From positions 42,372 to 106,371 of the forward strand of contig CAWDTC010000025.1 of the NCBI GenBank assembly GCA_963805045.1: a DNA stretch of 64,000 bases. Direction: 5' to 3'. The position numbers and the translations under genes were made by a program. This stretch comes from Candidatus Aminicenantes bacterium. GTDB lineage: Bacteria > Acidobacteriota > Aminicenantia > Aminicenantales > Saccharicenantaceae. Below the pieces are notes generated by a model. The model was not told the DNA's origin, did no database searches, and saw only the letters and a program-made list of their open reading frames with translations. Every line of letters begins with the position of its first letter. The stretch's first letter is position 1. Below, in pieces: positions 556 to 27,431 of the stretch.

Positions 556-3145
556 GGCCGGCCGAGTCTTCAGGCCGGGCCGTCCGGCCCGGGCCCCTGC
601 CCCTCCCTGCTCCTGGACGAGGGACCCGCTGACCTCGAGGAAGTGCTCGACGACCTCCGGGTCGAACTGGGCCCCCGAGCAGCGGATGATCTCCTTGACC
701 GCGTAACGGTGGGACGACGCCTTGCGGTACGGCCGCTGCGAGGTGATCGAGTCGTAGGCGTCGGCTACGGCCATGATCCGGGCGCCGAGGGGGATCTCCC
801 GGCCCTTCAACCCGTCGGGATAGCCCGTGCCGTCGTAGTGCTCGTGGTGGGCCCGGACGACCTTGGCGATGTCCTTGAGCTCGATGACCGGGCGCAGGAT
901 GCTCTCGCCCCGCGCCGGGTGCTCCTTGATGAGGGCGAACTCCGCCTCCGTCAGCTTGCCCGGCTTGTTGAGGATGCTCTCCGGGACGGCGATCTTGCCG
1001 ACGTCGTGGAGGAGCGCGGCCAGCTCGAGGTCGCCCTTCTCCTTTTCGCTGAAGGCCATCCGGTCCGCGATCTTCAGCGAGAAGTCGGTCACCCGGGTCG
1101 AGTGGTGGCGGGTGTATTCGTCCTTCGCGTCGATGGCGGAGGCCAGGGACTTGACCGTGGACAGGAACAGCGAGCGCTGCTGATCGACAAGGTCGGAGGT
1201 CCGCATCTTGAGGTTCCGGTTGACCAGGGCCAGCTCGGATTCGACTGCGGCGGATCCGGAGGAGGGCCCGGATGCGGGCCTTGAGCTCGACCGAATCGAA
1301 GGGCTTGGAGATGTAGTCGTCCGCGCCGGCCTGCATGCCCTCGGCGAGCATCTCGGCGCCGGTCCGCGCGGTGACGAGGATGACGGGCATGTGCTTGAGG
1401 GCCGCGTCGGCCTTGACGGTCCGGCAGAAGGCGTGCCCGTCCATGCCGGGCATCATGACGTCGCAGAGGACGAGGTCGGGGCTCTTCTCCCGCATCAGGG
1501 CGAGCCCCTTCTCCGCCGAGGTCGCGACCTCGACGTCGAACTCGTCGCTGAGGAGCATCTTCATGAGCTTGAGGACCTCGGCGTTGTCGTCGATGGCCAG
1601 GATCAGGGCGTCGTGGGTCTTGGTAGCCTCGCCCGCCGGACCCTCGATGTCTACGTGCTCCAGGTCGACGAGCTGGAGTCGGTGGGCGTCGGCGACGATG
1701 TCCTGGACCCTCGGCTCCCCGGTGTCCGTCGTCCGCCGCTTTAGCCCGACGGGATGTTCTTCCTGGCGGCGGTCGAGGACGTCCTCCGGGAAGTGGCTCT
1801 CGCCCTTCAGCATGTCGACGATGAACCGGGAGCCCTTGCCGAGCTCGCTCTCGGCCCTGATCGCCCCACCGTGGACGCTGACGATCTCCCGGGCCAGCGA
1901 CAGCCCGATGCCCGTGCCTTCATGGGACCGCGACATCGACCCGTCGACCTGGGAGAACCGGTCGAAGATCGTTTCCAGCATGTTGGCAGGAATGCCGATC
2001 CCCGTGTCCTCGACGGCCAGGGTGACCGAACTGTCCTTGTCCTCGATGTAGACGGTGATCTTTCCCCCCTTGGGGGTGAACTTGAGGGCGTTCGAGAGGA
2101 GGTTGAGGATGACCTTCTCGAACTGGTCCGGGTCGACGACGAGCTCGACGTCGTGCGGCGGGTGCTGGAAATAGAGCTTGATCTGATTCTGGTCGGCCAG
2201 CGGCTTGACCGTCGACAGGAGGGAATTCGTGAACTCGACCAAATTTACTGGCTTGATCTTGAGCCGCATCTTCCCCTCCTCGAGCTTGGTCAGGTCGAGG
2301 AGGTTGTTGATGAGCTTGAGCAGCTTATAGCCGTTGCGCTGCATCGTCTCGAGGGTGTCCCTGAACTGGGCAGACAGCTTGCCCATCCTGTTCTCCAGGA
2401 TGGCCTTGAGAGGCGCGAGCATCAGGGTCAGGGGCGTCCGGAGCTCGTGGTTGACGTTGGCGAAGAACTGGGTCTTGAGCTCGTCGAGCGACTTGAGCTT
2501 GATGTTGGATTCCTGGAGCTTGGCCGTCGTCTCCTCGAGCTGGGTGCGGCTCCGGAGCTCGCGGCGGCGGGTGCTGTCCATCGAGTGCGACCCGACGGCG
2601 CCGACGATGATGATCGAGGTCAGGAAAAACAGGTTGTTGGTCACGAACCGCCACAGATCGAGGCTCTCGCCATTGAGGACGATGGGAGCCTGGCCGCCCG
2701 CGATCTTGAGAAAGCTCGGGACGGCATAAATGGCCCAGGTCAGGACATAAAGAAAGATGGCCTCGCGGAAGGCGAAGGGGATGACGACGATCATGCCCAT
2801 GACGATGATGTTCAAACCCTGGTAGTAGCTCGTGAGGAAACCACCCAGGATCTGGATCATGATGCCGATGCCGACGGCGTCCAGGATCACCATGGTCATG
2901 GCCAGGTTGAGAAAGCCGCGGTGGGTCTTGGTGCGTTTGGCGATGACAAGGAGCAGGAATTCCAGGGCGGCGACGGAAAAGCGGATGATGGCGAAGGTCT
3001 TGATATGCTGCGGCGTGTAGACCCAGTCCAGGAGCAGGAACGAGACGAACAGGATCATGCTGATGATGATGGCCAGCTTGACCCTGCCTTTCAGGTCGTA
3101 TTCCGTGTAAAGCCTTTCCTCGAACGGAGTGATGGTGTTAGGCAT
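527..3145 (-). CDS. Hybrid sensor histidine kinase: multi-TM sensor, HisKA/HATPase, REC receiver, C-terminal HD-GYP phosphodiesterase (frameshifted)
   Basis: ORF-track protein has an N-terminal polytopic membrane region, an H-box (ELRTPLT), HATPase (DTGIGIP...GTGIGL) and REC (ILAIDDN...DVMMPGMDG...KPF). Re-reading the minus strand at about 640-1250 in a -1 frame gives a clean HD-GYP domain (HDVGKIAVP...HHEHYDGTGYPDGL) that the listed frame replaces with Gly/Arg-rich junk. So there is a 1-nt frame break near 1250 and the 3' end is uncertain (stop at 527 or about 570). Confidence 0.7.
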   Translation of the reverse strand: MPNTITPFEERLYTEYDLKGRVKLAIIISMILFVSFLLLDWVYTPQHIKTFAIIRFSVAALEFLLLVIAKRTKTHRGFLNLAMTMVILDAVGIGIMIQILGGFLTSYYQGLNIIVMGMIVVIPFAFREAIFLYVLTWAIYAVPSFLKIAGGQAPIVLNGESLDLWRFVTNNLFFLTSIIIVGAVGSHSMDSTRRRELRSRTQLEETTAKLQESNIKLKSLDELKTQFFANVNHELRTPLTLMLAPLKAILENRMGKLSAQFRDTLETMQRNGYKLLKLINNLLDLTKLEEGKMRLKIKPVNLVEFTNSLLSTVKPLADQNQIKLYFQHPPHDVELVVDPDQFEKVILNLLSNALKFTPKGGKITVYIEDKDSSVTLAVEDTGIGIPANMLETIFDRFSQVDGSMSRSHEGTGIGLSLAREIVSVHGGAIRAESELGKGSRFIVDMLKGESHFPEDVLDRRQEEHPVGLKRRTTDTGEPRVQDIVADAHRLQLVDLEHVDIEGPAGEATKTHDALILAIDDNAEVLKLMKMLLSDEFDVEVATSAEKGLALMREKSPDLVLCDVMMPGMDGHAFCRTVKADAALKHMPVILVTARTGAEMLAEGMQAGADDYISKPFDSVELKARIRALLRIRRSRIRAGPGQPEPQDADLRPCRSAALAVPVHGQVPGLRHRREGRIHPPPLDPGDRLLAEDRGPDGLQRKGEGRPRAGRAPPRRRQDRRPGEHPQQAGQADGGGVRPHQGAPGAGREHPAPGHRAQGHRQGRPGPPRALRRHGLSRRVEGPGDPPRRPDHGRSRRLRLDHLAAAVPQGVVPPLRGQGDHPLLGGPVRPGGRRALPRGQRVPRPGAGRGRGPGRTARPEDSAGLSRPSSPPA

Positions 3146-6100
3146 GGGTGTTCCTCGCGCGAGCGACGACGACGTACCCCTGAGGGGGATCGCCGTAAGA
3201 CGGGATGATCCGCTCGATCTCCCAACCCGCTCCCTCCAGCAAGCCTTCGAGCTTCTCAGAATCGAAGAAGTCGAACGTCCCCGCCTCCTCTAGATCCACT
3301 AACGCCTGGGCGTCGTTGAGGAAGGAGCGGAGAGATTCGAGGAGAAGCGGCTTGGGCCAACTCGGCGGGAGGGCCTCCTCGGGCATGGTTTCTATCTTCT
3401 CGAGGAGCCGGGTGAATGGGCCGGAGGCGTCGGTATCGGGACGCATGCTCGACAAAACGAGCCTTCCTCCCGGCCTGATGATCCTCCTGACCTCGGCCAG
3501 GGTTTCGCCCGGATTGAAAATATAGGAGAGAACGAGGCTCATCAGGACCTTGTTGTACCAGCCCGCCCGGAGCGGGAGATGAAGGGTGCCCTCCAAGTAC
3601 CCGGGTAAGGCGAGTCTGCGGAGGGCGGGCTTCTTATTCGTCAGGCGCCGGACGTAGCGCGCGGCCAGGTTAAAATCGATGATCGTCCGGTACTCGTGGA
3701 GATCGAACTGCCTTTTCAACCATTCGTCGTACGCTGGGGAAATGGGCTCCCCCCTGAGGATTCTGTGGAGACGAGGCGAATAAGCTTTTTGGATCTTCAG
3801 GGCACTCTCTAGGGTCAGGTTCTCGATCTTGTCGGCCATCTCCTCGAAGGTCCCGACCTCGCCATCCAGAAATCGCTGGATAGGGAGGAAGCGGCTCAAC
3901 TCCATGTCGAGGCACAGGAGGTCGAGGCGGCCGGGCTCCTTGAGGGCGTCGTAACGGAAAACGAACTTCTGCCTGGCCTGCTCCATGGCATCCGGGATCA
4001 GATCGGCGACGGTGATCTGTGCGGGAAGCTCCCGGCCGCTCTCGAGGAGGTGTTCGACGAAATTGCCCGTCCCGCCGCCCAGATCGAGCAGCCGGTCCGA
4101 GGGCAGGAGCTCGAGGGCCAGGAGTTGGTCCTGCATCAGCTGCTGGTAATCGTCGGACATCGCCATGATGTCGAAGCCCAGGAGGTTGTTGTCGCCCACG
4201 AGATAGCGATGCCAGTAGGTCTGTCGGTTCTTGAGGTTCCGGGTCGGAAGCCTGTCTTTCTCGGCCCGGCGCATGGTCTCCATGTTCTTCCGGCTGGGCA
4301 GGACCGGCTGGATCATGGTCTTGTGAAGAAAACGATGGATCAGCGACGTGATCGTCCCGAACATCTGCAGGGCCTCCCTTGACGTCCGGGCATTGTGCCC
4401 GATGGGAACGGAGATCACCTCACGCGGGGCGTTGGCCTTGATGCTCATCACGTCGCGGATGAACTCGGCCCTGACCCAGTTGTCGTATTGTCCGTAGATC
4501 CAGGTTATCGGAATGTCGATATGGCGCATGTCCTCGCGGGCCTGCTCGAGCGTGGCCACGGAGTTCGCGACCCCGTCTCCGACATAGAAGTCGACATTGA
4601 CGAGGTTGCCCAGGACCGGCATGACGCCCAGTTTGATGCCGAGCTGGTAATGCTCCAGGAAATCCAAGCCGCAATTGATCCGGACCATGAGGTCGCGGAA
4701 TTCCGGCGTGCCCATGCAGGCGATCCAGTACTGGATGCGATGATGGTTCGCCTCGTCCCTGAGGACGATCCGAGCGTCCAGCGCCGAAAAAGAAAACGTC
4801 AGGAGGATGACCGAGCTGGCCCGGAGTTTGGGATTCAGGTCAAGCCAGTCCAGGATGGCGACGACGTCCGCGGCGCTCTGGGTGAAATTCGTATTGAGCA
4901 TCTCATATGGCGGCTCCGATGCCTCGGCGTCCTTGTGGCTTTCCCCCTTCTTGCGGATGCCGTCAAAACGGATGACCGCCAAGGGCTTTCCCAGACGGCG
5001 GAAGTTCTCGGTCAGGGTCAGGGCCAGCCCGAACAGAGTCTCCTTGGTCTTCCCGAAGGCCGGCGGGACGATGACAACCGGGACGGGCCTGTCGTCCAAG
5101 GGGAGCGATGAATTCAGAAGCCCGACGATCTCCTCACCCTGCCGGGTCTCGACCCGGAACACCTCCGGGGGCTTGAGAACCGGTTGGCCCGCTTCTGTCG
5201 CGGCAGGTCGGGTCGCCTGTCTCCCGGACGGTTCGTCGGGATGGAGCCCGTAATCAAGCTCGGGAGTCTGGACGGACTGAATGCTCATCCGGCCGATGCC
5301 GAATTGAACACCGTACTTCGCGGTGTAAAGGACTCCTTCTCCGGCCCGGGAAACGTAGCGGACTTCGCCACTCTCTTTCCAGAGGACCTGGTCGCCGTCC
5401 ATAATGGACACGGTGTCGAGGGGCGTCCCCTTCAGCAGGACCTGTGCGTGGGAGTCGGCGATGAAGCTGACCCCACCCGGACTGATGTCGGTGATGCGGC
5501 CGGTGATGCTGTTGTTGAAGGGCTCGGGGAGGGGGATCTCGACCCGGAGGTTGCCGTACGGACTGAGCCGCTTTTCGGTCCGCTTTTCCGAATAGAACAT
5601 GACCCGTGGGTAAAGGCAGGTCAGGTTCCGGCCATCCGGCGCGATTCGAGAGATCATCGTCTCGAAATTGTAAGTGGCGTAGCCGATCTGGAAGGAGACA
5701 AAGATGAGATCGGACGTCTTGAACCGGACGTTCAGGTCTTCCCCGGCGAAGACGCACGTCGACTGAGGCCGGACATCGCCGAACCTGAGGATCTCCGGGT
5801 TCCGGGATTGGGCCTGGACGACTGCGACCTCCGTCCCATTGCGCATGGCCTCGCGGATGAGGGACTCGATCTTGAAGGCGTCCGAGAACAGGACCATGTC
5901 CTCGGTCTTGAGGAACGGATACCGCGATTTGAGCCCGGAAAGGTCGCGGACCGTGACGTAATCCGAGAGGAAGTGAAGGAGAGAGCGGCGGCTCTCGTCA
6001 TCGATGGCCTTGAACTCGACGCCGACGCCTCCCTGGTCGACGTCGTGCCGGACAATCCGGCCCGTGACGGCATAATGGCGGCCATCGGGGAGGGTGATGT

Positions 6101-15221: not shown

Positions 15222-16913
15222 TCACCGCGCCGCTTCGCTGTCTTCCCAATCGCGGATCGTCCGTATGGCCTCCTCCGGGGTCCGGACCGACCTCAGGACC
15301 TGCATGAGTTGCCTGTTCTGGGCGGCCCGGCTGGCCAGGCCCAGCAGCTGGACCTGGGTCCCGGGGGTCTCGGCCGGGGACAGGAGGAGAAAGACGATCT
15401 CGATGGGCTTGTCCGTGGCCACGTCGATGACGCCCTCCTTCGTCAGCCCGAGGACGACGACCGGTTCCTTCAGTCCCTCCACCCGGACGTGGGGGAAGGC
15501 GACGCCCTCGTTGAAGAACGTCGAGCCCTGCGCCTCCCGCGCCATGATGGCCGCGAACAGGGCTTCGGCGTCCCCGCCGCCGGCCTCCGGTCCGACGGTC
15601 GCGGCCAGGGCGCACAGCACGCCTTCCCTCTCTGCGGCCGTCTCCCAGATGACGACCCGTGGGGAGGACAGCCACCGGCTGAGCCGGGGACGGTCCGCCG
15701 GCGCGGCGCCGGCGCCTCCGGCCGCAGCGACCCCCGCCGTTTCCTGCTCGGGGATCTCGGGCCGGGGCCGGACGGACTCCGGCAGGTCCTCGCACGTGTC
15801 GAGGACGATGACGGTGATCCCCCGGGCGTTCCTGATGAGAGCGTCGATGACGTTCCTGTTCCGGCCGAGCCGCTTCCAGAACGGCTTGGGCTGGGCCCGG
15901 CCGACGACGATGTGGCCGACCCGGTATTCCCGGGCGAAACGGAGGAGCGTGTCGGCGATGTCCTCCCCCTTGTAGGTGAAGACCATCGCCCCGAGCTGCT
16001 TGGCCAGGGTCAGGGAGTCCGAGAGATGGCGCTGGACTTCGGCGTCGATGACCGTGGCTTCCTCCGACGGCGTCTGGACATAGACGGCGTACCAGTTCCG
16101 GTTGAGCCTCCCCGCCAGCCGCGAGCCGTAGCGCAGGAGCTTCTCGCTGTTCGGGCCGTGCGAGCTCAGGCAGACCATGACCTGGTCGGACGAAGCGCCG
16201 GCCTCCGCCCCCTGCGCCTCCCGCCGCCGCAGGTCGATCTGCGAGGCCAGCTCCCGCAGGGTCAGCTCGCGGAGCTTCTCCAGGTTGGAGGGGGTGAAGA
16301 AATTGGCCAGGGCGGTCTCGATGCGTTCGGTCGGGTAGATCTTGCCGTCCTCCAGGCGCTGCCGCAGGTCCTCCGTGGCCAGGTCGACGTCGACGATCTC
16401 GTCGGCCTCGGCCAGGATCGAGTCGGGGATGCGCTCGCGGACCTTGACCCCGACGGCGTTCTCGACGATGTTGTAGAGGCTCTCGAGATGCTGGACGTTG
16501 AGCGTGGTGATGACGTGGATGCCGGCCGCCAGGATGTCCTGGACGTCCTCGTAGCGCTTGGCGTTCCGGCTGCCGGGGACGTTCGTGTGGGCCAGCTCGT
16601 CGATGAGGGCGACCTGGGGCTTGCGGGCCAGGATGGCGTCCACGTCCATCTCCTCGACGGCGATGCCGTGGTATTCCTGGGTGCGCCGCGGCACGACCTC
16701 GAGGCCCTGGGCGAGCCGGGCGATGTCCGCCCGGCCGTGCGTCTCGAGGAGGCCGATGACGACGTCGATGCCCTCGGCCTTGAGCCGGTGGCCCTCCTGG
16801 AGCATCTGGTAGGTCTTGCCGACGCCCGCGGAATAGCCGAGGTAGACCTTGAGCCGGCCCCGCTGGGCGCTGCGGATCATGCGGAGGAAGGCGTCGGCCT
16901 TATCGTCCGGCAC
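15222..16913 (-). CDS. Kinase-less KdpD sensor module: KdpD N-terminal domain + Usp domain fused to a PTS EIIA(Ntr)-like (EIIA type 2) domain
   Basis: KdpD-N signature LKVYLGYSAGVGKTYQML...ALIDELAHTN. A Usp-OKCHK-like region follows (VMVCLSSHGPNSEKLL...IVVG), then a Gly/Ala linker and an EIIA-2 fold with an active-site-like His (GVAFPHVR...IVFLLLSP). No HisKA/HATPase is present. Confidence 0.8.
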   Translation of the reverse strand: MPDDKADAFLRMIRSAQRGRLKVYLGYSAGVGKTYQMLQEGHRLKAEGIDVVIGLLETHGRADIARLAQGLEVVPRRTQEYHGIAVEEMDVDAILARKPQVALIDELAHTNVPGSRNAKRYEDVQDILAAGIHVITTLNVQHLESLYNIVENAVGVKVRERIPDSILAEADEIVDVDLATEDLRQRLEDGKIYPTERIETALANFFTPSNLEKLRELTLRELASQIDLRRREAQGAEAGASSDQVMVCLSSHGPNSEKLLRYGSRLAGRLNRNWYAVYVQTPSEEATVIDAEVQRHLSDSLTLAKQLGAMVFTYKGEDIADTLLRFAREYRVGHIVVGRAQPKPFWKRLGRNRNVIDALIRNARGITVIVLDTCEDLPESVRPRPEIPEQETAGVAAAGGAGAAPADRPRLSRWLSSPRVVIWETAAEREGVLCALAATVGPEAGGGDAEALFAAIMAREAQGSTFFNEGVAFPHVRVEGLKEPVVVLGLTKEGVIDVATDKPIEIVFLLLSPAETPGTQVQLLGLASRAAQNRQLMQVLRSVRTPEEAIRTIRDWEDSEAAR

Positions 16914-17493
16914 GGGGGACTCCGTCGAGCGCGAGGTTCAATTCAGGACGTTGACGCGGGGCTCGCCGAGGATGCCCAACGTCCGGCCCTCGGTCGTGGC
17001 CGCGACGAAGGCGAGGACATCCGACTCGGTCAGGCCGCGGGCCCGGGCGACGCGGCCGGCCTGGAGCCGGGCGTTCTCGGGGGAGATGTGGGGGTCGAGC
17101 CCGCTCCCCGAGGCGGTCACGGCGTCGGCCGGCACGGGCGTCCCCGGCGCGAGGCCGTTCTCCGCCCGGTATTCGGCGACCCGGCGCCGCACGGTCTCGA
17201 TCAGCTCCTTCGACAGCGGCCCGAGGTTTGACCCGCCGGAGGCCGTGGCGTCGTAGCCCTTCCCGGCCGCCGACGGACGCGGATGGAAATACCCCGGCCC
17301 GGCGAACCGCTGGCCGATGAGGTCCGAGCCGACGACGGCGCCGCTCCTCGCGACGAGCGAGCCGTTGGCCTCTGGCCGGGAAGAAGGCCTGAGCCAGGAC
17401 CCACGAGGCCAGCGGATAGAGGCCGCACAGAAGGACGGCCAGGGCGGCCACGGCCAGGAAGGACCGCCGGAGTTCCTCGAGCCAGCTCTTCAT
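16900..17493 (-). CDS. kdpC: K+-transporting ATPase subunit C (frameshifted)
   Basis: N-terminus [32 protein letters not shown] (ATG at 17493); C-terminus ...[13 protein letters not shown]...EPRVNVL/ELNLALD is split between ORFs 16938-17192 and 16900-17493. Confidence 0.75.
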
Positions 17494-17514: not shown

Positions 17515-19541
<2,027 letters not shown>

Positions 19542-19553
19542 CGTGCGACTCCC

Positions 19554-21408
19554 TTAGAACAGGACTCCCGAACCGGTCATCAGGAAGTGCTCGACGATCG
19601 GGCCGAGGGCCAGGGCGGGAAGGAACGTCAGGGCGCCGACGATGAGGACGGTCCCGACGAGGATGATGACGAACATCGGCCCGCTCACCGGGAAGCTCGC
19701 CTCGCCCGCCGGGACGAGCTTCTTCCGCGCCAGGCTCCCGGCCAGGGCCAGGACCGGCACGATCATGACGAAACGGCCGAAGAGCATGGCCAGGGCCAGG
19801 GTGACGTTGTACCAGGCGTGTTGCCGTTCAGCCCGGCGAAGGCGCTGCCGTTGTTGCCCGTGGCCGAGGAGAAGGCGTAGAGGATCTCGCTCAGGCCGTG
19901 GGGGCCGGCGTTGCCGAGGCCGGCCAGGCCCCAGCGGCTCGACCGACGGCCCAGGCGGCGAAGCCGAGGATGGAGAAGATGAGGATGAGGACGGCCAGGA
20001 CGGAGACCTTGACGTCGTAGGCCTCGATCTTCTTGCCGAGGTACTCGGGCGTCCGCCCGACCATCAGGCCGGTCAGGAAGACGGCCAGGACGACGAAGAC
20101 GAGCATCCCGTAGAGGCCCGAGCCGACGCCGCCGAAGACGACCTCGCCGAGCTGGATGTTGACGAGCGGGACGAGCCCGCCGAGCGGCGTGAACGAGTCG
20201 TGCATGGCGTTGACCGCGCCGCAGGAGGCGTCCGTCGTGACGGTGGCGAAGAGGGCGGAGTCGAAGACGCCGAAGCGGACCTCCTTGCCCTCCATGTTGC
20301 CGCCGCGCGGGTCGACGCCGAGGGCCTGCGAGCCGGGGATTGCCGGCGCTCTCGGCCCTCCAGCAGACGAGGACCGCGGCCAGGAAGAGGATGGCCATGG
20401 CCGTCCAGACGGCCCAGCCGTGCTTCTGGTTCTTGACCTTGCGGCCGAGGTAATAGGTGAGGCCGCTCGGGATGAGGAAGATCGAGAGCATCTGGATGAA
20501 GTTCGAGAGCGGCGTCGGGTTCTCGTAGGGATGGGCGGCGTTGGCGTTGAAGAAGCCGCCGCCGTTCGTGCCGAGCATCTTGATGGCCACCTGCGAGGCC
20601 GCCGGGCCCTGGGGGAGGGTCTGGGTCGTCCGGCCGCGTCCTTCCCGGGACCGGCCGTCGCCTCCGCGGTCGCCGCCCGGACGTAAGGCTTGAAGTTCTG
20701 GATGACGCCCTGGGACGATCAGGAAGAGCGGAGAAGACGAGCGAGAGCGGGAGCAGGAGGTAGAGGTTGACGCGGACGAGGTCGACCCAGAAGTTCCCGA
20801 TGGTCTTGGCCGAATGCCGGGCGATGCCCGCGGACCAGGGCCGCGGCGACGGCGATGCCGGCGGCGGCCGAGACGAAGTTGTGGAAGACGAGCCCGACCA
20901 TCTGCGAGAAATAGGACAGGGTCGATTCCCCGGCATAGTTCTGCCAGTTCGTGTTCGTGGTGAAGCTCGCCGCCGTGTTGAAGGCGAGGTCGGGGCGCGA
21001 CGCGGCCCGAACTCTGGGGGTTCAGGGGCAGGAGGTGCTGGAGGCGGAGGACGGCGTAGGTGAAGAGGAGCCCGACCAGGCTGAAGACGAGGAGGGAGAG
21101 GGTGTATTGCTGCCAGTCCTGCTCCTTCTTCCGGGTCGACGCCGAGGAGCCGGTAGAGGAGGCGCTCGACGGGCTTGAGCCGGCCGGTCCAGCCAGGTCC
21201 TGCCCTCGGGCTCGAGGACGCGGACGAGGTAGAGGCCGACCGGCTTCGTGAGGAGGAAGAGGACGCCGAGGAAGAGCGCGAGCTGGAGTCCAGCCGGAAG
21301 ATGTCCATCGCGATCATCGCCTCTCAAAACTTCTCCGGCCGGAGGACGCTCGAGCAAGAGATAGCCGATGAGCAGGAGCCCGACGATGAGCCCGATGATG
21401 TCGATCAT
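19554..21408 (-). CDS. kdpA: K+-transporting ATPase subunit A (several frame breaks)
   Basis: N-terminus [19 protein letters not shown] (ATG at 21408). Internal segments are in ORFs 20073-21317, 19891-20295 and 19763-20590; C-terminus in 19554-19787. Confidence 0.85.
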
Positions 21409-21495: not shown

Positions 21496-23349
21496 GACGC
21501 GGCTCCTCCTCGGCGCACCGCGTCGGCCCTCCTCAGCGTGAAGGAGAACGTCGCGCCCTGTCCCTCCCGGCTCTCGACGCCGACCGTTGCCGCCGTGGGC
21601 CTCGACGATCTCCTTGACGATGGCCAGCCCGAGCCCCGCGCCCCGGTCTCCGGCTCCTGCCCGGGAACGCGGAAGAACGGCTCGAAGATCCTGGCGAGGT
21701 ACTTCGCGGGGATGCCGGCGCCCGTATCGGCGACCGAGAAGCGGACCGACGTCCTCCTCTTCCTTGGCGCGACACGGTGATCCGCCCGCCGGGCGGCGTG
21801 TGCTTGAGGGCGTTCGAGAGCAGGTTGCCGAAGACGTGGCTGATCGGGTCGGTCGGCCAGGACCTCGGGCAGGTCTGCCGCGCACGTCGACGGCCAGCGT
21901 CACGCCCTGGTCCTGGGCCGCCCGGCGGAAGGGCTCGAGGGCGTCCATGACCAGCGTCTGCGGGCGAGATCGGCCTGGAAGTCCATGCTGGCCTTCCCCG
22001 ATTCCATGCGGCTGATGTCGAGGAGGTTGTTGAGGATGTCGTGGAGCCGGTCGCTGTCCTCCCGGGCCGCGACCAGGAGCTCGGCCTGCTTCTCGGTCAG
22101 GGCGCCGACCTTCTCCTCGAGAAGGAGGTGGATGGCCATGCGGATGGAGGTCAGGGGGGTCTTCAGCTGGTGGGAAACGGTCCGGATGACACTCCGCTTG
22201 ATCTCGTCCTGCTGCCGGAGCTGGGTGACGTCCTGGAGGACGAGGATGACGCCGGTCGGCTGCCGCTCGGCGTCCAGGATGGGGACGGCCTCCGGGCGGA
22301 AGAAGCGCTCCTCCCCGTCCACGAATGCTGGATGACCTTCTGCCGTTCGCGGGGCGGAACGGGCCGGCCCTCGCTGAGGGCCTCGTTGTAGAGATCGACG
22401 TCCAGTCCGAACGGCAGGTCGCGGATGGCGGACGCCCGGCCTCAGGCCGAAGACGGTCCTGGCCGGCTCCGTCGACGACCTCCACCTTTCCCTCGAGGTC
22501 GACGACGGCGACGGCGTCGGGCAGCTGTCGAAGGCCTGCTGTGTCGCCCGCTGGATGCGGAGGAGCTTGGCCTGGTCGGTCCGCCGGAACTCCCGCAGGC
22601 TGGCGGCCATGGCGTTGAACGCCTCGGCCAGGTGGCCGATCTCGTCGTGGGAATCGCTCGGGACGACGAGGTCGAGGTTGCCGCGCCGGATCTCGTCGGC
22701 GGACCGGATCAGGCGTTCGGATCGGGCCGGAGGATCCAGCGTCCGGGCGAAGACGATGAAGCGAGCGGCGACGAGCGTCCCCAGGCCGAGAAGGACGATA
22801 CATCTGCCGCCGGGCCGCGGCGGCGCTCTGCGCGGGCCCGGTCGTTGGCGTCGCTCATGTTCTGCTGGTTCATCTGGAGGATGTCGTCGGCCGTGGCCTT
22901 GATCTGCCCGAAGAGCGGGAGAAGGGCATGTGAAGTAGGCGTCCCGGCGGACGTCCGGCGGCCTGCGCCGGGTCGCTTGACCTTCTCCAGGGCCGCTGCG
23001 TACCGGCCGTAAAGATCCTTGAGCGCGCGGCCTTCTCGCCCTCGCCCGGCACGGTGATGTTGTTCAGCTCGACCTGGAGGGCCTTTTCGAAGACGCCTTC
23101 GTTCTTCAGGATGAGCTCCTCCCCCTGACGGGAGTCGCCGAGGAGGGTAAAGAGCAGGCCGCTGTCGATGCGCTCCAGGGCCTCCTTCATCTGCTGGCAG
23201 GCGATGACGCTCCGGTAGTTCTCGCGGAGGATGACGTCGATGGACTCGCCGAGCCGCGAGAGGTGGAGGATGCTCTGGCCGCCGATGACGAGGATGATGA
23301 CGAGCAGCCCGCCGAAGCCCAGGGAGATCTTCTGACGGAGTCCGAGCAT
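21492..23349 (-). CDS. Membrane sensor histidine kinase (non-KdpD type; periplasmic sensor domain, HisKA, HATPase), frameshifted
   Basis: RBS GGAAGGAGAGG then ATG at 23349: MLGLRQKISLGFGGLLVIILVIGG... (ORF 22870-23349). HisKA VSHQLKTPLTSIRMAIHLL (ORF 21900-22610). HATPase ...GLGLAIVKEIVEAHGG in a third frame; stop at 21492. Confidence 0.75.
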
Positions 23350-23373: not shown

Positions 23374-23389
23374 TGCAAGAGCCATGCCA
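23374..23389 (-). promoter_or_regulatory. Sigma-54 (-24/-12) promoter CTGGCATGGCTCTTGCAT immediately upstream of the HK-kdpFABC operon
   Basis: Minus strand reads TGGCAT-N5-TTGCA. The GG-to-GC spacing is exactly as in the consensus TGGCAC-N5-TTGCA. The predicted start site falls at the RBS, about 14 nt before the ATG. Confidence 0.55.
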
Positions 23390-23544: not shown

Positions 23545-24914
23545 CTAAAGGCCGTACTTCTTACGCCGCCGCCAGAGGGTGGCCTGGTCGATGCCGAGCA
23601 CGTCCGCCGCCTCCTGGAGGGAGTCGCGTCCTCGCCAGGACGCGCCGGATGTGCTGCTCCTCGATCTTGTCCAGGCTCACGCGGTCGCCGAGCCGGACCT
23701 CGGCGCCGCCGGGAACGACTCCCGCCGGCAGGCATTCGATGCCGACGCGGTCGTCGCGGCAGAGGATGGCGGCGCGCTCGACAGCGTTGCTCAGTTCGCG
23801 GACATTGCCCGGCCAGGCGTAGCCGGCCAGGGCGCGAAGGGCCTCGTCCGTGAAGCCCAGGTACGAGCGGTGGTTATTGCGGGCGTGAAAGGCCAGCAGC
23901 CGTTCCGCGAGCCCGGCAATGTCGCCCGGCCGCTCGCGGAGGGGAGGGATCTCGATCGGGATGACGTTCAGACGGTAATAAAGGTCCTCCCGGAAGCGGC
24001 CGTGCTTGACGGCGTCCTCGAGGCTCGTGTTCGTGGCCGCGATCAGCCGCACGTCCGCCTTCCGCGTGACCGTGTCGCCGACGCGCTCGTATTCCCGGTC
24101 CTGGACGAAGCGCAGGAGCTTCGGCTGGAGGGCGAGGGGCAGGTCGCCGATCTCGTCCAGGAAGAGCGTCCCGCCGTCGCTCGCGGCGATCCGGCCGGGG
24201 TTGTCGCGGACGGCGCCGGTGAAGGCGCCCTTGACGTGGCCGAAGAGCTCGCTTTCGAGCAGCTCCGGCGAGAAAGAGGGGCAGGAGATCAGGCTGAACG
24301 GCTTCCCCGCCCGGGGGCTCCAGGAATGGATGGCCCGCGCCAGGACCGTTTTGCCCGTGCCGCTCTCGCCGCGAAGGAGGAGCGTCGCCTCGGATGCCGC
24401 GGCCTGGCGGGCCAGGGCCGCCGCCCTCTGCATGGCCGGGTTCGAACTCGAAAAATCGACCTCCGGACGCTGGCGGCCCAGGTCCTCCTGTAGGGCGGCG
24501 ACCTTCTGCTCGAGCGTCCGGACCTCGAAGACCTTCCGGACGGCCAGGTTGATCTGGGCCGGCGTGAACGGCTTGGGGATGTAATCGGTCGCTCCCCGCC
24601 GCATGGCCTCGACGGCCGTATCGATGGAGGCGTAGGCGGTGATGACGATGATCTTGAGCCAGGGCGTCGCCGCGAGGAGGGGCGGGATGAGGTCGAGGCC
24701 GTCGTCGGTGCCCAGCCGGAGGTCGACGAAGGCCAGGTCGAAGGAACGGCGTGCGGCCTCGGCCAGGGCGTCCTGGAAATTGCTGACCGCCGATGACCTT
24801 GTGGCCTTCCGTCTCGAGACAGAGGGCCAGCGTCTTGCGGATGTTGAGCTCGTCGTCCACGACCAGGACATGGAGGGACGGGCTCACGGCCGGGATGCTC
24901 TTTTCGGGCCCCAT
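23545..24914 (-). CDS. Sigma-54-dependent (NtrC-family) response regulator: REC - AAA+ sigma54-activation domain (GAFTGA) - Fis-type HTH; frame breaks near both ends
   Basis: N-terminus MGPEKSIPAVSPSLHVLVVDDE (ATG at 24914). AAA+ with GESGTGKT and GAFTGA. C-terminal HTH ...EAADVLGIDQATLWRRRKKYGL* read in a shifted frame (stop at 23545). Confidence 0.8.
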
Positions 24915-24966: not shown

Positions 24967-25105
24967 CACGCAGCCAAGCGATGGACGGGGCATGTCCTCC
25001 CACGGCAGACAGGGCCTTCCTCGGGCTGGAAGGTTCCCATTTGCCGTGTTTCGGACTACAATAAGGGTGTCAAAGTCAGGACATGGGTAATCCCCCGGAG
25101 GCGTC

Positions 25106-25879
25106 ATGACACTCAAGAAGAAACTGACTTTGGGCCTGGGGTTCTTGTTCCTCATCATATTCTTTTTGGGGATTTTCTGCTCCTACCATATCGGCAGCCT
25201 CTCGCAGGACGCCGAGAACATCCTGAAAGACAATTACAAATCACTCGTCTACTCCAGGAACATGATCTCGGCCCTCGAGGACATGCGGACGGCCGTCAGC
25301 AGCATTATTTTCAACGTGCCCGAAGCTAAGGAGACATCAGACTACTACCTGAAGCTCTTTGAAGCCGGCCGGATCGAATTCGAAGCCAATCTCAAGTCCG
25401 AGAACGGCAACATCACCGAGATCCATGAAAGCGATTACGTGGCCGCGGTCAACCGGGATTATGTTCTGTACGCAAGCCTCTGCCAGCGCCTCGTCAAGGG
25501 GGAGGGCGGCCGCGCGCTCTATTTCAATGAATACCAACCCGCCTTTGAAAAACTCAGGCACGCCATCATCAGCATCAACGACGTTAACATGCAGGCCGTC
25601 GAGCGGAAAAATCAGATCGCAAAGCAGGATTCGGCCAGGACCATCAGCCTTATGGCCGGCATCGGGGCCTTTTGCCTGCTCCTGGCGTTCGGCTATTTTT
25701 GGTACTTCCCGGTTTACATCTCCAACTCGATCAGCTATCTTGCGGACAGGATGAAGACGCTCCTGAAGAAGTCCAACATCGTCCTCGATATCAGGACGGA
25801 CGACGAAGCCTTCATCGTCTTGCAGGGCATCAACCTGCTTGAGAACAAGCTGGACGTCAAAGACAATGGACAGGCCTAG
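25106..25879 (+). CDS. Orphan membrane-anchored sensor-domain protein (two TM segments, no output domain); paralog of the HK sensor domain
   Basis: MTLKKKLTLGLGFLFLIIFFLGIF...ENILKDNYKSLVYSRNMISALEDM aligns with the HK N-terminus ...DVILRENYRSVIACQQMKEALERI. A second TM is near the C-terminus. RBS GGAGG. The gene is visibly lower in GC than its flanks. Confidence 0.6.
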   Translation: MTLKKKLTLGLGFLFLIIFFLGIFCSYHIGSLSQDAENILKDNYKSLVYSRNMISALEDMRTAVSSIIFNVPEAKETSDYYLKLFEAGRIEFEANLKSENGNITEIHESDYVAAVNRDYVLYASLCQRLVKGEGGRALYFNEYQPAFEKLRHAIISINDVNMQAVERKNQIAKQDSARTISLMAGIGAFCLLLAFGYFWYFPVYISNSISYLADRMKTLLKKSNIVLDIRTDDEAFIVLQGINLLENKLDVKDNGQA

Positions 25880-25896: not shown

Positions 25897-27201
25897 CTAA
25901 AAGGTGAAGAGGGCGTCCACGCTGAATGTCAACTGATCTTGATGGCCGCCGTCGAAGGCCGCGCGGTCAGAGTGGTCGTAGCGAACTTCAGGCCGGAACA
26001 GCACATGCGAGAGGATATGGTCTTTTGGGAACGGCTTGATCGCCATGCCCATGGTTGCCTCACGGTAGTCGGCGCTGACGGGCGCACCGGTGGAAAAGCC
26101 ATTGGCGGCGTCTTTGTACCACTCCAGCCGGGTGTTCAGTGTGAAGTGCGTATCGATCGCGAAGCTTACGTAGCCAGCCACGCCACCCCACTGCTTAACA
26201 CCGTCCGGTAAGCCCGGGATGTGCGGCGCGACGACGTAGTCAACGCCCAAGCCGAGGCTGAATTTGTCAGTGACCTTGTGGGTCATAACCAAGTCCAAGG
26301 CGGTCCACCAGTCGCTGTTGTCGCCCGGAGGCAGATTCGTTCCGACGCCCGCCGGGAACTCCGGGCCTTCCGTCATCACGAAAATGACGGAAGTCTTGTC
26401 GCTGGGCGTATAGATCACGCGGCCCAAGAAGTCCAGGGAATCGTTAGCGTCGCGCGTCGACTGGTTCCAGCCGCGCGTGAAGCCGGCGTCAAACGTCCAC
26501 TGGCGGTTAAGCACGACGGTGGCTAATACGCCCGTCTGCGTGCCAGACTCGGCATAGAGAAACTGATAACTGTAAGAATAAAGTGCCCTGGCCGGATCAC
26601 CGAAAGCCCCGTAGATGTTAGCGCTGAACTGCTCGAAACCGGCCAGCTCGATCCATTTGCCCACGCGGAGTCGAAGCGGCAAGCCCGGGAGGGTCACGTC
26701 CACATAAGCTTGGAGAAGGTCCCATTGATTGCGCCCGGTCTGCGTATCCATCATGCCGTTCGAGTGGATGAACGCCGCATCTGCGCCATAGATGCCTTCC
26801 CCGTGGAAACCCACGTTAAATGCCTTCTTGGTCGGATCGACCGTGCGCTCGATATTCAAACTGATCTTGTCAAGGATGACCGTGTTCTTGAAATTGTTAT
26901 ATCCGATGTAGGTCGGGCCGGGACTGTCAGGCGCGGAGAGGTCGTAAAAGTAACCGCCTTGAGCATAGCCGTAGATGTTGATCCTGGCCTTGTTCAAAGG
27001 CCCAGCTATTCCCCCCTCGGCCAAAGCCGTCATCAGCGGCCCCGGTGTCGGCACGGTCGTGGTCGGCGGACTTGCTTCCTGGATCTTTTCCTTGTCCGAT
27101 GTCGCTGCCGGTGCATTTTGGCCGGCGCGCAATGGGATATTGATCCAAGCGGCAAGGAGCGCACAGCTGACTGCGGCAATCCCGAATTTAACGACTTTCA
27201 T
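25897..27201 (-). CDS. Outer-membrane beta-barrel protein (porin-like), with a signal peptide
   Basis: RBS AAGGTGA then ATG at 27201: MKVVKFGIAAVSCALLAAWINIPLRAG. Alternating amphipathic strands; C-terminal ...SVDALFTF (terminal Phe). Confidence 0.6.
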   Translation of the reverse strand: MKVVKFGIAAVSCALLAAWINIPLRAGQNAPAATSDKEKIQEASPPTTTVPTPGPLMTALAEGGIAGPLNKARINIYGYAQGGYFYDLSAPDSPGPTYIGYNNFKNTVILDKISLNIERTVDPTKKAFNVGFHGEGIYGADAAFIHSNGMMDTQTGRNQWDLLQAYVDVTLPGLPLRLRVGKWIELAGFEQFSANIYGAFGDPARALYSYSYQFLYAESGTQTGVLATVVLNRQWTFDAGFTRGWNQSTRDANDSLDFLGRVIYTPSDKTSVIFVMTEGPEFPAGVGTNLPPGDNSDWWTALDLVMTHKVTDKFSLGLGVDYVVAPHIPGLPDGVKQWGGVAGYVSFAIDTHFTLNTRLEWYKDAANGFSTGAPVSADYREATMGMAIKPFPKDHILSHVLFRPEVRYDHSDRAAFDGGHQDQLTFSVDALFTF

Positions 27202-27413
27202 GGGTGTCACCTTGGTTAAAGGATGTGCGATCTCTTCCGGATTCGGTTGCGACGGTCGAGCGACTATCATCAATCCGCTGCACGATTTGCGAGAACTGAC
27301 GGTCGAGGATATGCACGACTGTATTTCCTATGGGACGGCTGGCTTTCTGGATGTTTGTTTTTGATTTCATGGATTTAAGGGGGCTTGGCGTTTTTTTCCG
27401 AGAGACCGGATAG

Positions 27414-27431
27414 TGCAAGATATATACCAAC
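27414..27431 (-). promoter_or_regulatory. Sigma-54-like promoter GTTGGTATATATCTTGCA (TGGTAT-N5-TTGCA) about 210 nt upstream of the OMP gene
   Basis: Exact GG-N10-GC spacing; a TGGTAT -24 variant is known from nif promoters; shares an upstream motif with the kdp sigma-54 promoter. Confidence 0.35.

Follow-up and report, generated by a model that had tools for sequence, protein, structure and literature searches.

A stretch of 64,000 nucleotides from a Candidatus Aminicenantes bacterium (contig CAWDTC010000025.1; the window, from here on) carries an open reading frame (ORF) of 257 codons at 25106..25879 on the plus strand, close to the genes for the kdp potassium pump and the sensor histidine kinase that accompanies them. 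The ORF is real and intact. Its product is a paralogue of the input module of that kinase, with two transmembrane (TM) helices and without a transmitter, and it belongs to a family of standalone sensors tied to K+ uptake loci, in which two unrelated K+ transporters are involved. We hold with moderate confidence, and for the two parts jointly, that the window gene is a functional, vertically inherited member of a family of output-less membrane sensors, and that these are extracytoplasmic sensors feeding the control of K+ uptake by protein-protein contact. The architecture itself is that of an input module of the Tar/NarX type. What is new is an output-less sensor of this kind, with a four-helix bundle (4HB) and a HAMP domain, that is specifically tied to K+ uptake loci. 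A full-text literature search returned no description of the family or of its kdp association.

An input module that ends after HAMP

A likeness between the protein and the sensor domain of the kdp kinase had been proposed in a preliminary description of the window, and the peptide alignment quoted there was confirmed. In BLASTP the ORF matches the N-terminus of the kinase (22870-23349, minus strand) with 29% identity over 114 residues (E 3e-11). When a profile of 23 standalone family members was aligned with one of five intact kinase N-termini, hhalign returned a probability of 98.8% (E 9.5e-17) over 237 columns that span TM1, the periplasmic domain, TM2 and HAMP. The similarity of the two sensor domains is therefore significant at the profile level; the identity between the modules is low, at 24-31%.

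The lack of a transmitter was also borne out. The chain stops 7 residues past the second HAMP helix and Pfam finds no HisKA or HATPase_c in it. With neither domain present and the chain ending at residue 257, a histidine kinase identity was rejected. No NCBIfam model matches the window protein. Some family members carry the label 'KinB', which has been transferred from the shared N-terminus by JGI/KO-based annotation.

An AlphaFold2 (AF2) model made from a 27-sequence alignment (pLDDT, the predicted local confidence score, 84.4) has helices at residues 3-69, 79-100, 108-130, 135-222 and 234-255. These would correspond to TM1, a four-helix bundle, TM2 and a HAMP domain that closes the chain. 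The four antiparallel helices predicted between the two TM helices resemble solved 4HB sensor domains in structure, and in a Foldseek comparison with the PDB those of Tsr, Tar, QseE, KinB, Adeh_2942 and NarQ rank highest. TM-scores are 0.6-0.81 (target-normalised), with E-values of only 0.01-0.3 and identities of 9-16%; weak Foldseek E-values are usual for helical bundles. A profile search of the PDB gave no sequence relatives (best E 0.11, spurious). With the Pfam family 4HB_MCP_1 (PF12729) the window protein scores 22.4 bits, below the 27-bit gathering cut-off (E 1e-4, residues 1-75 only), and 20 of 27 family members match this family at E < 0.01 (best 3.1e-7).

The HAMP domain is divergent. 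For the window protein Pfam HAMP (PF00672) gives no match at E <= 1, while six more distant members among the 27 do match it, the best at E 5.3e-13. Nevertheless, the region has features of HAMP. P202 at its start and the acidic pair D233-E234 ahead of its second helix are invariant, N243 is conserved, and two helices are predicted right after TM2. Furthermore, the C-terminal region aligns by hhalign to the HAMP domain of the kinase, which is Pfam-positive there at E 1.9e-15. TM2 is near-invariant in the core family.

A family tied to potassium uptake loci

A word-indexed search found 688 homologues, and the best 120 of them are 71-100% identical, all standalone and 254-304 residues long. An 'orphan', as the gene had been called, would not have at least 688 homologues of which the top 120 all stand alone. 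A HMMER scan of 1.84 billion representatives gave 923 matches. The strong ones (E <= 1e-30) fall into about 30 clusters at 50% identity, and those that are full-length are mostly standalone proteins of 245-275 residues. From E ~1e-28 down, kinase-family proteins of ~600-620 residues appear that align to residues 1-250 with 26-31% identity. The surroundings of the gene were collected from 80 genomic loci, with each species represented by one genome; the counts of neighbours and of GC given below refer to 79 related loci, and individual loci are cited by an L number.

In 42 of the 79 loci, kdp genes lie within 8 kb of the sensor gene (tblastn with kdpA, kdpB, kdpC and KdpD_N seeds). Less than one such locus would be expected by chance, according to a rough estimate of our own that assumes a kdp operon of ~7 kb with 8-kb flanks in a genome of a few Mb. 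The linkage is seen in at least five layouts and at least five phyla, and the deepest branches of the tree show it as well as the shallowest. The sensor gene stands between kdpABC and kdpD in Planctomycetota, Bacteroidota and L080, after kdpABC and a short kdpD in Aminicenantes and Desulfobacterota, and between the C-terminal half of kdpD with kdpE on one side and kdpABC on the other in L025 and L028. It is divergent from a block of response regulator, histidine kinase, kdpABC and short kdpD in the window, L007, L016 and L017, and divergent from kdpABC-kdpD in L071.

The tightest association is with genes that encode KdpD_N. Such a gene immediately adjoins the sensor gene, co-oriented and on either side, in at least 22 loci, and in four of them (L048, L052, L056 and L057) stop and start codons overlap by 4 nucleotides. 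Almost all of the adjacent KdpD proteins are without a histidine-kinase core. They are either KdpD_N-Usp(-EIIA) proteins of ~380-565 residues or KdpD_N-Usp-DUF4118-GAF proteins of 656-659 residues. The second transporter is KimA, a K+/H+ symporter. A KimA homologue (PDB 6s3k, E 4.6e-69) is encoded beside the sensor gene in nine loci. Three of these, L022, L024 and L081, are two-gene arrangements of sensor gene and kimA without an adjacent signalling gene, and in L053 and L061 the sensor gene is flanked by both kdp and kimA.

Sedimentisphaerales have a second, paralogous sensor clade that is not linked to kdp (L032, L040, L045, L049, L022 and L024). Its genes lie upstream of enolase in four loci and of kimA in two. 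In three loci of Spirochaetota and Smithella without K+ genes (L075 5348-8759, L073 and L060), the sensor gene directly follows or lies near genes for large soluble PAS-domain (hybrid) kinases; in L075 the gap between the two is 19 nucleotides. This hints that other soluble kinases, too, may use the standalone sensor as a separable membrane input.

A putative pocket shared with a kdp-dedicated kinase family

Conservation within the family is concentrated in a few places. Invariant in 27 standalone members, down to 28% identity, are K41-D42-N43 in helix 1, E99, N102, T104, E105 and E108 at the turn between helices 2 and 3, and N161, A164 and K168 in helix 4, in addition to P202 and D233-E234 in HAMP. 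All 27 members have the signature residues (K)DN-Y ... N-I-T-E-x-x-E ... N-M-x-A-x-x-R-K. Judging only by where the model places the helix ends, the three groups of periplasmic residues would sit about equally high in the bundle, within its membrane-proximal third.

Most of these residues recur in the kinases. Among 41 kinase representatives (560-660 residues, clustered at 50% identity), all have N43, E105, E108 and N161, while 40 have N102 and T104, 37 have K168 and 35 have D42. The conserved residues may thus form a putative ligand pocket common to the standalone family and the kinases. Such an acidic, Asn-rich pocket would suit a cation, the obvious candidate being K+.

The kinases themselves appear to constitute a large, KdpD-independent, sigma-54-coupled family of kdp sensor kinases, namely the ~600-residue proteins that are at present mislabelled 'KinB'. 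The kinase gene is directly upstream of kdpA in Aminicenantes and Desulfobacterota loci. Four further kinases, chosen only for their long contigs, were all found in loci of sigma-54 response regulator, histidine kinase, kdpFABC and short kdpD. In every context examined, therefore, the kinase family is kdp-dedicated. The four contexts (L084-L087) belong to kinases P0302, P0373, P0297 and P0287, which are 4HB-HAMP-PAS proteins of ~600 residues annotated as 'KinB' by several sources. L086 and L087 encode the middle part of KdpD (Usp-DUF4118-GAF) as a separate protein. Just upstream of the kinase-regulator-kdpFABC locus in L084 (5777-8694), a gene for Kup (K_trans) is followed by one for a 313-residue, single-TM helical protein with a faint match to 4HB_MCP_1. 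This protein was considered as a Kup-linked member and rejected, as it is unrelated to the sensor family (BLASTP E 74).

The low-GC segment and the descent of the gene

The gene had been described as part of a segment of lower GC and different codon usage. The segment is real, with a GC of 0.52-0.61 between ~24.9 and 27.6 kb as against 0.66-0.74 on both sides, and the gene does lie in it between the sigma-54 regulator and the porin. Overall GC is 0.53 for the sensor gene and 0.58 for the porin gene, compared with a window mean of 0.67. At the first, second and third codon positions (GC1, GC2 and GC3) the sensor gene has 0.49, 0.31 and 0.79. Plausible window genes average a GC3 of 0.864 (standard deviation 0.079) and a GC2 of 0.50; the GC3 of the porin gene is 0.73. 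Different codon usage is thus correct in so far as there is a modest GC3 deficit (0.79 vs 0.864), but most of the dip reflects amino-acid composition. About three quarters of the GC deficit of the gene come from codon positions 1 and 2, and F, Y, M, I, N and K make up 35.8% of the protein (15-17% in neighbours). Gene GC is below that of the flanks in 79 of 79 related loci, with a usual difference of 5-15 points, while GC3 goes with the host (between 0.20 in a genome of 33% GC and 0.89 in one of 67% GC). The dip is therefore largely a property of protein composition. In other words, it is mainly the abundance of these six residues in the protein that lowers the GC; a GC dip can come from amino-acid composition alone. 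The remainder of the low-GC segment consists of the porin gene and two intergenic promoter regions (GC 0.63 and 0.46).

The modest synonymous deficit is shared with L003, an Aminicenantales metagenome-assembled genome of a different species whose sensor protein is 85% identical to the window copy. There the sensor and porin genes both have a GC3 of 0.72 and their neighbours 0.82-0.91. The deficit is therefore old. It may stem from an ancient, partly ameliorated transfer or from gene-specific codon usage.

Homologues of the window protein are 62-85% identical to it in Aminicenantes, 53-60% in Sedimentisphaerales/Phycisphaerales, 51-61% in Syntrophales and other Desulfobacterota, 45-61% in Spirochaetota and 38-44% in Bacteroidota/Ignavibacteria/FCB. 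A neighbour-joining tree follows phyla, with the window copy as sister to L003 deep within the Aminicenantes clade. This phylogeny argues against a recent import. L003 also keeps the order of regulator, sensor gene, porin, PhzF-like gene and S9-peptidase gene. Compared with ten Aminicenantes orthologues, the ratio of nonsynonymous to synonymous substitution (dN/dS) is 0.15-0.33; the family is under purifying selection. In the same loci, identity between Planctomycetota and Aminicenantes is 50-60% for the sensor, 55-59% for KdpA and ~66% for KdpB, and lower than for the sensor in KdpC (46-52%) and KdpD_N (~40%). The sensor thus appears to evolve unusually slowly for a sensor domain.

One explanation offered earlier was that the gene is a recently acquired fragment. 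Such a horizontal islet, or the decaying remnant of a kinase pseudogene, is highly improbable. The GC dip and a GC3 somewhat under the window mean are what an islet would show, but L003 has the same dip within an identical gene order, the window copy nests inside its own phylum, and gene GC is below flank GC throughout the family while GC3 follows the host. Neither an islet nor a pseudogene fits the dN/dS values, and the uniform length of the top 120 of the 688 homologues adds to this. Traces of a mobile element were sought as well. The window contains no tRNAs, the repeats on either side of 24.4-28.0 kb are short and at chance level, and no mobility genes mark the sensor-porin segment. A cassette was likewise rejected, since conservation downstream of the sensor gene ends just past its stop codon and cassette ends are absent.

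Promoters of the sensor gene and its neighbours

A scan for the sigma-54 motif TGGYAY-N5-TTGCW found only two matches in 64 kb, both on the minus strand, one upstream of the kinase-kdp operon and one upstream of the porin gene (Table 1). L003 has a matching site, TGGCATGAATCTTGCG, at ~3140-3155 in the same place upstream of its porin gene, and an equivalent site precedes the orthologous kinases in L017, L052 and L057. The sensor gene has a sigma-70-like promoter, TTCCCA-17-TACAAT (25034-25062), found by promoter scan. It lies within a block of ~85 nucleotides, GCCCGGAAGATTCCCATTTGCTGCGAATCGGACTACAAT...GGAGGCATC-ATG, that is kept upstream of the gene in nine Aminicenantes sequences (the window and eight loci). 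The block moves with the sensor gene; the surrounding genes are unrelated among the nine. A sigma-54 promoter for the sensor gene was considered and rejected. The conserved block has the wrong GG-to-GC spacing, and both strict matches in the window belong to other transcription units. At gathering thresholds, Rfam shows no riboswitch or known RNA in the window or in nine related loci.

With its own conserved sigma-70-like promoter and sigma-54 sites elsewhere, the sensor gene therefore looks like an autonomous, probably constitutive unit. Pump and porin look inducible through sigma-54. Perhaps the porin belongs to a K+-limitation regulon, as both its gene and the kinase-kdp operon have sigma-54 promoters. 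In five other Aminicenantes loci (e.g., L006 8866-9699) the kdp operon ends with a gene for a different outer-membrane protein, which has no Pfam match. The conserved upstream block contains a small palindrome, GGAAGATTCC, which shares bases with the -35 element and may be an operator.

Proposed role and alternatives

When K+ is high, KdpD_N, an atypical serine kinase, turns the pump off by phosphorylating KdpB (Silberberg et al., 2024; PMC11018627). The same study showed that in many species KdpD lacks the histidine-kinase core. It calls the means by which short KdpD/Usp proteins sense K+ a conundrum and proposes c-di-AMP for Deinococcus (PMC11018627).

The standalone sensor most likely reads the same extracytoplasmic cue as the kinase, which would be K+ or a closely related cation signal. 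Without a transmitter, it would relay the signal through TM2 and HAMP by contact with a partner in K+ uptake. For this partner the best candidate is the serine-kinase protein with the KdpD N-terminus, an inhibitor of the KdpFABC pump; the transporters themselves (KdpFABC and KimA) are alternatives. In this scheme the kinase and the sigma-54 regulator would set the transcription of kdpFABC, and probably of the porin gene, while the standalone sensor, made from its sigma-70-type promoter, would serve a second, post-translational branch. The kdp-type 4HB sensor would then exist in two forms, one fused to a kinase for sigma-54 transcription and one that stands alone as an input in trans. A bolder and more tentative version, which may be correct but which we would not bet on, makes the family the membrane K+ sensor of the kinase-less short-KdpD systems, with the periplasmic pocket reading K+ outside the cell and HAMP docking onto and switching the KdpD_N serine kinase, and perhaps gating KimA as well. 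If ligand, partner and direction of regulation are of this kind, a 4HB/HAMP receptor would signal to an atypical serine kinase or a transporter in trans and not to a fused transmitter. The short-KdpD systems would gain a candidate input, in the form of a conserved, unannotated sensor encoded beside short KdpDs and KimA in several anaerobic phyla. Provided that the link is functional, a K+-related signature for 4HB sensors would be defined, a natural example of an output-less HAMP receptor signalling in trans would be at hand, and the annotation of hundreds of proteins would be corrected.

Several observations do not fit well with an output-less sensor of K+ uptake. In 33 of the 79 loci, including nearly all of those from Spirochaetota, there are no K+ genes and no recurrent neighbour; a Pfam scan of 89 flanking proteins from these loci found nothing that recurs apart from enolase (in four Sedimentisphaerales loci) and scattered signalling domains, and Trk, Ktr and Kup were absent. 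Phylogenetically the 79 loci form clusters (11, for example, are near-identical Sedimentisphaerales), and the number of independent events is far smaller than 42. All four sampled loci with kinase, kdp and short kdpD are without a standalone gene within 9 kb. Finally, in the window genome and L003 the GC3 of sensor and porin genes is about 1-2 standard deviations below the window mean, which is not fully explained. What if the family is a generic sensor of the envelope or of solutes that has nothing to do with K+, and its linkage to kdp comes from the common ancestry of a few operons and not from function? The loci without K+ genes would fit this, as would the Spirochaetota copies beside soluble PAS kinases (e.g., L075). 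Even so, we regard it as improbable because the linkage is found in rearranged layouts across phyla and at all depths of the tree, involves two unrelated K+ transporters, and extends to a kinase family with the same pocket that is dedicated to kdp wherever it was examined.

Two other alternatives keep the connection with K+, and each seems unlikely to us, although less so than a generic sensor. One, anticipated in the preliminary description, is that the protein acts on the neighbouring kinase, either as a co-sensor that forms heterodimers through bundle, TM helices and HAMP (a dominant-negative or tuning effect) or as a decoy that sequesters the ligand. Locally this is possible, and a co-sensor is plausible. 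The two proteins are homologous along the whole dimerisation-competent module and share the pocket residues, and both genes are present in one locus in the window, L003, L007, L016 and L017. However, the modules are only 24-29% identical, the Planctomycetota, Bacteroidota and KimA-linked loci have no such kinase in their 8-kb flanks, and the sampled kinase loci have no standalone gene. The family therefore occurs without a kinase nearby in several phyla, so this is not its general mechanism. Since kinase/kdp/short-KdpD loci exist without a standalone gene nearby, and many copies have no K+ gene beside them, the standalone sensor is not an obligatory partner. For a decoy in particular, conservation at the level of KdpA that includes TM2 and HAMP is a poor fit; a specific partner surface would explain it better. 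The other alternative is a direct regulatory subunit of K+ importers, binding or gating KdpFABC, KimA or both in the membrane without any kinase. It is consistent with the two-gene arrangements with kimA, with the position of the gene between kdpC and kdpD and with the near-invariant TM2. Yet nothing separates it from the model with a KdpD_N partner, and it is KdpD_N genes that the sensor gene adjoins most closely and most often, on either side and with overlapping stop and start codons. HAMP domains are known for signal relay and are not known to bind transporters.

Comparison with known systems

The closest relatives are the kdp-linked NtrC-family kinases ('KinB'), which have the same TM1-4HB-TM2-HAMP module, the same pocket residues and the same neighbourhood of kdpFABC and short kdpD. 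They differ in having PAS, HisKA and HATPase_c, whereas the standalone sensor ends after HAMP. The standalone family is a separate clade (the ~30 clusters at E <= 1e-30), in the core of which HAMP has diverged until Pfam no longer detects it, and its gene in the window has a sigma-70-type promoter where the kinases have sigma-54. Another likeness is to Af1503 of Archaeoglobus fulgidus, the HAMP prototype, described as a membrane protein that does not signal and has no output domain (PMC3585426). Both are membrane-anchored, end with HAMP and have no cytoplasmic output. However, sequence similarity between them is not detectable (no HAMP entry at E <= 10 in the PDB profile search), and the sensor family has a defined 4HB sensor, a conserved pocket and an association with K+ loci. 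No function or genomic association is known for Af1503.

The 4HB ligand-binding domains of Tar/Tsr, NarX/NarQ, KinB and QseE resemble the protein in predicted fold and topology. NarX/NarQ have their nitrate site in the membrane-proximal third of the bundle, which is where the conserved residues of the sensor would lie according to the helix positions of the model. These domains are known only as fusions to a transmitter or to a chemoreceptor signalling domain. A different comparison is with sensor kinases that are modulated by small accessory proteins of the membrane (MzrA with EnvZ, SafA with PhoQ, YycH/YycI with WalK). The likeness would be in a proposed contact in or near the membrane rather than phosphotransfer. 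These accessory proteins are not known to be paralogues of a sensor module or to have a ligand-binding bundle plus HAMP. Finally, the KdpD variants without a histidine-kinase core (KdpD_N-Usp and KdpD_N-Usp-TM-GAF) are only serine kinases acting on KdpB (PMC11018627). They belong to the same modular, split kdp toolkit and are encoded beside the sensor family in at least 22 loci. The folds are unrelated and the membrane topology is different, and the sensor has no nucleotide-binding or catalytic domain.

The locus and minor observations

The features of the locus are collected in Table 1. The true start of the porin gene is probably the ATG at 27201 (MKVVKFG).

Table 1. Features of the sensor gene and its neighbourhood in the window
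Feature	Position	Strand	Basis and remarks
Output-less sensor coding sequence (TM1, four-helix bundle, TM2, HAMP)	25106..25879	+	257 aa, ATG start
Conserved upstream block: sigma-70-like promoter, 5' untranslated region, ribosome-binding site GGAGG	25020..25105	+	Promoter scan, alignment
TM1, ~residues 7-27, LTLGLGFLFLIIFFLGIFCSY	25124..25186	+	Sequence reading; within AF2 helix 3-69; highly conserved
Periplasmic four-helix-bundle sensor domain, ~residues 28-180	25187..25645	+	Invariant columns, Foldseek, sub-threshold Pfam
TM2, ~residues 181-201, aromatic-rich LAFGYFWYF	25646..25708	+	Sequence reading; part of AF2 helix 135-222
Divergent HAMP domain, residues 202-250	25709..25855	+	hhalign to kinase HAMP; AF2 helices 202-222, 234-255
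BBP2 (OmpL-like) beta-barrel porin, convergent with sensor gene	25897..27273	-	Pfam PF07642 E 3e-48
Sigma-54-type promoter TGGTATATATCTTGCA, upstream of porin	27414..27429	-	Match to TGGYAY-N5-TTGCW
NtrC-family sigma-54 response regulator (receiver, AAA+, lid), divergent from sensor gene	23561..24871	-	Pfam, NCBIfam; N-terminal part out of frame
Sigma-54-type promoter TGGCATGGCTCTTGCA, immediately upstream of kinase-kdp operon	23374..23389	-	Motif scan
Sensor histidine kinase (4HB, HAMP, PAS, HisKA, HATPase_c)	21522..23349	-	tblastn with intact L066 orthologue
kdpA	19554-21317	-	Frameshifted in assembly
kdpB	17518-19541	-	Frameshifted in assembly
kdpC	16900-17493	-	Frameshifted in assembly
Short soluble KdpD: KdpD_N (atypical serine-kinase domain), Usp, PTS_EIIA_2	15222..16913	-	Pfam

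The domain content of the kinase was taken from the intact orthologue in L016, as the window kinase has two frameshifts. There are also ~7 in kdpA, four in kdpB and one in kdpC. Because orthologues elsewhere are intact, these are most likely uncorrected long-read indel errors and not signs of pseudogenes. Frameshifts hit GC-rich genes, also at 10.3-12.6 kb and 28.5-31.5 kb, and the lower-GC sensor and porin genes are intact.

The short KdpD of the window has 563 residues (Pfam KdpD E 1.6e-92, PTS_EIIA_2 E 3.9e-16) and is without TM helices, GAF or a kinase core. An EIIA extension is found on the short KdpD in 16 related loci. In E. coli, free PtsN is reported to bind KdpD. The fusion of KdpD_N and Usp with a type-2 (PtsN-like) EIIA domain looks like a Rosetta-stone fusion of this PtsN-KdpD interaction.

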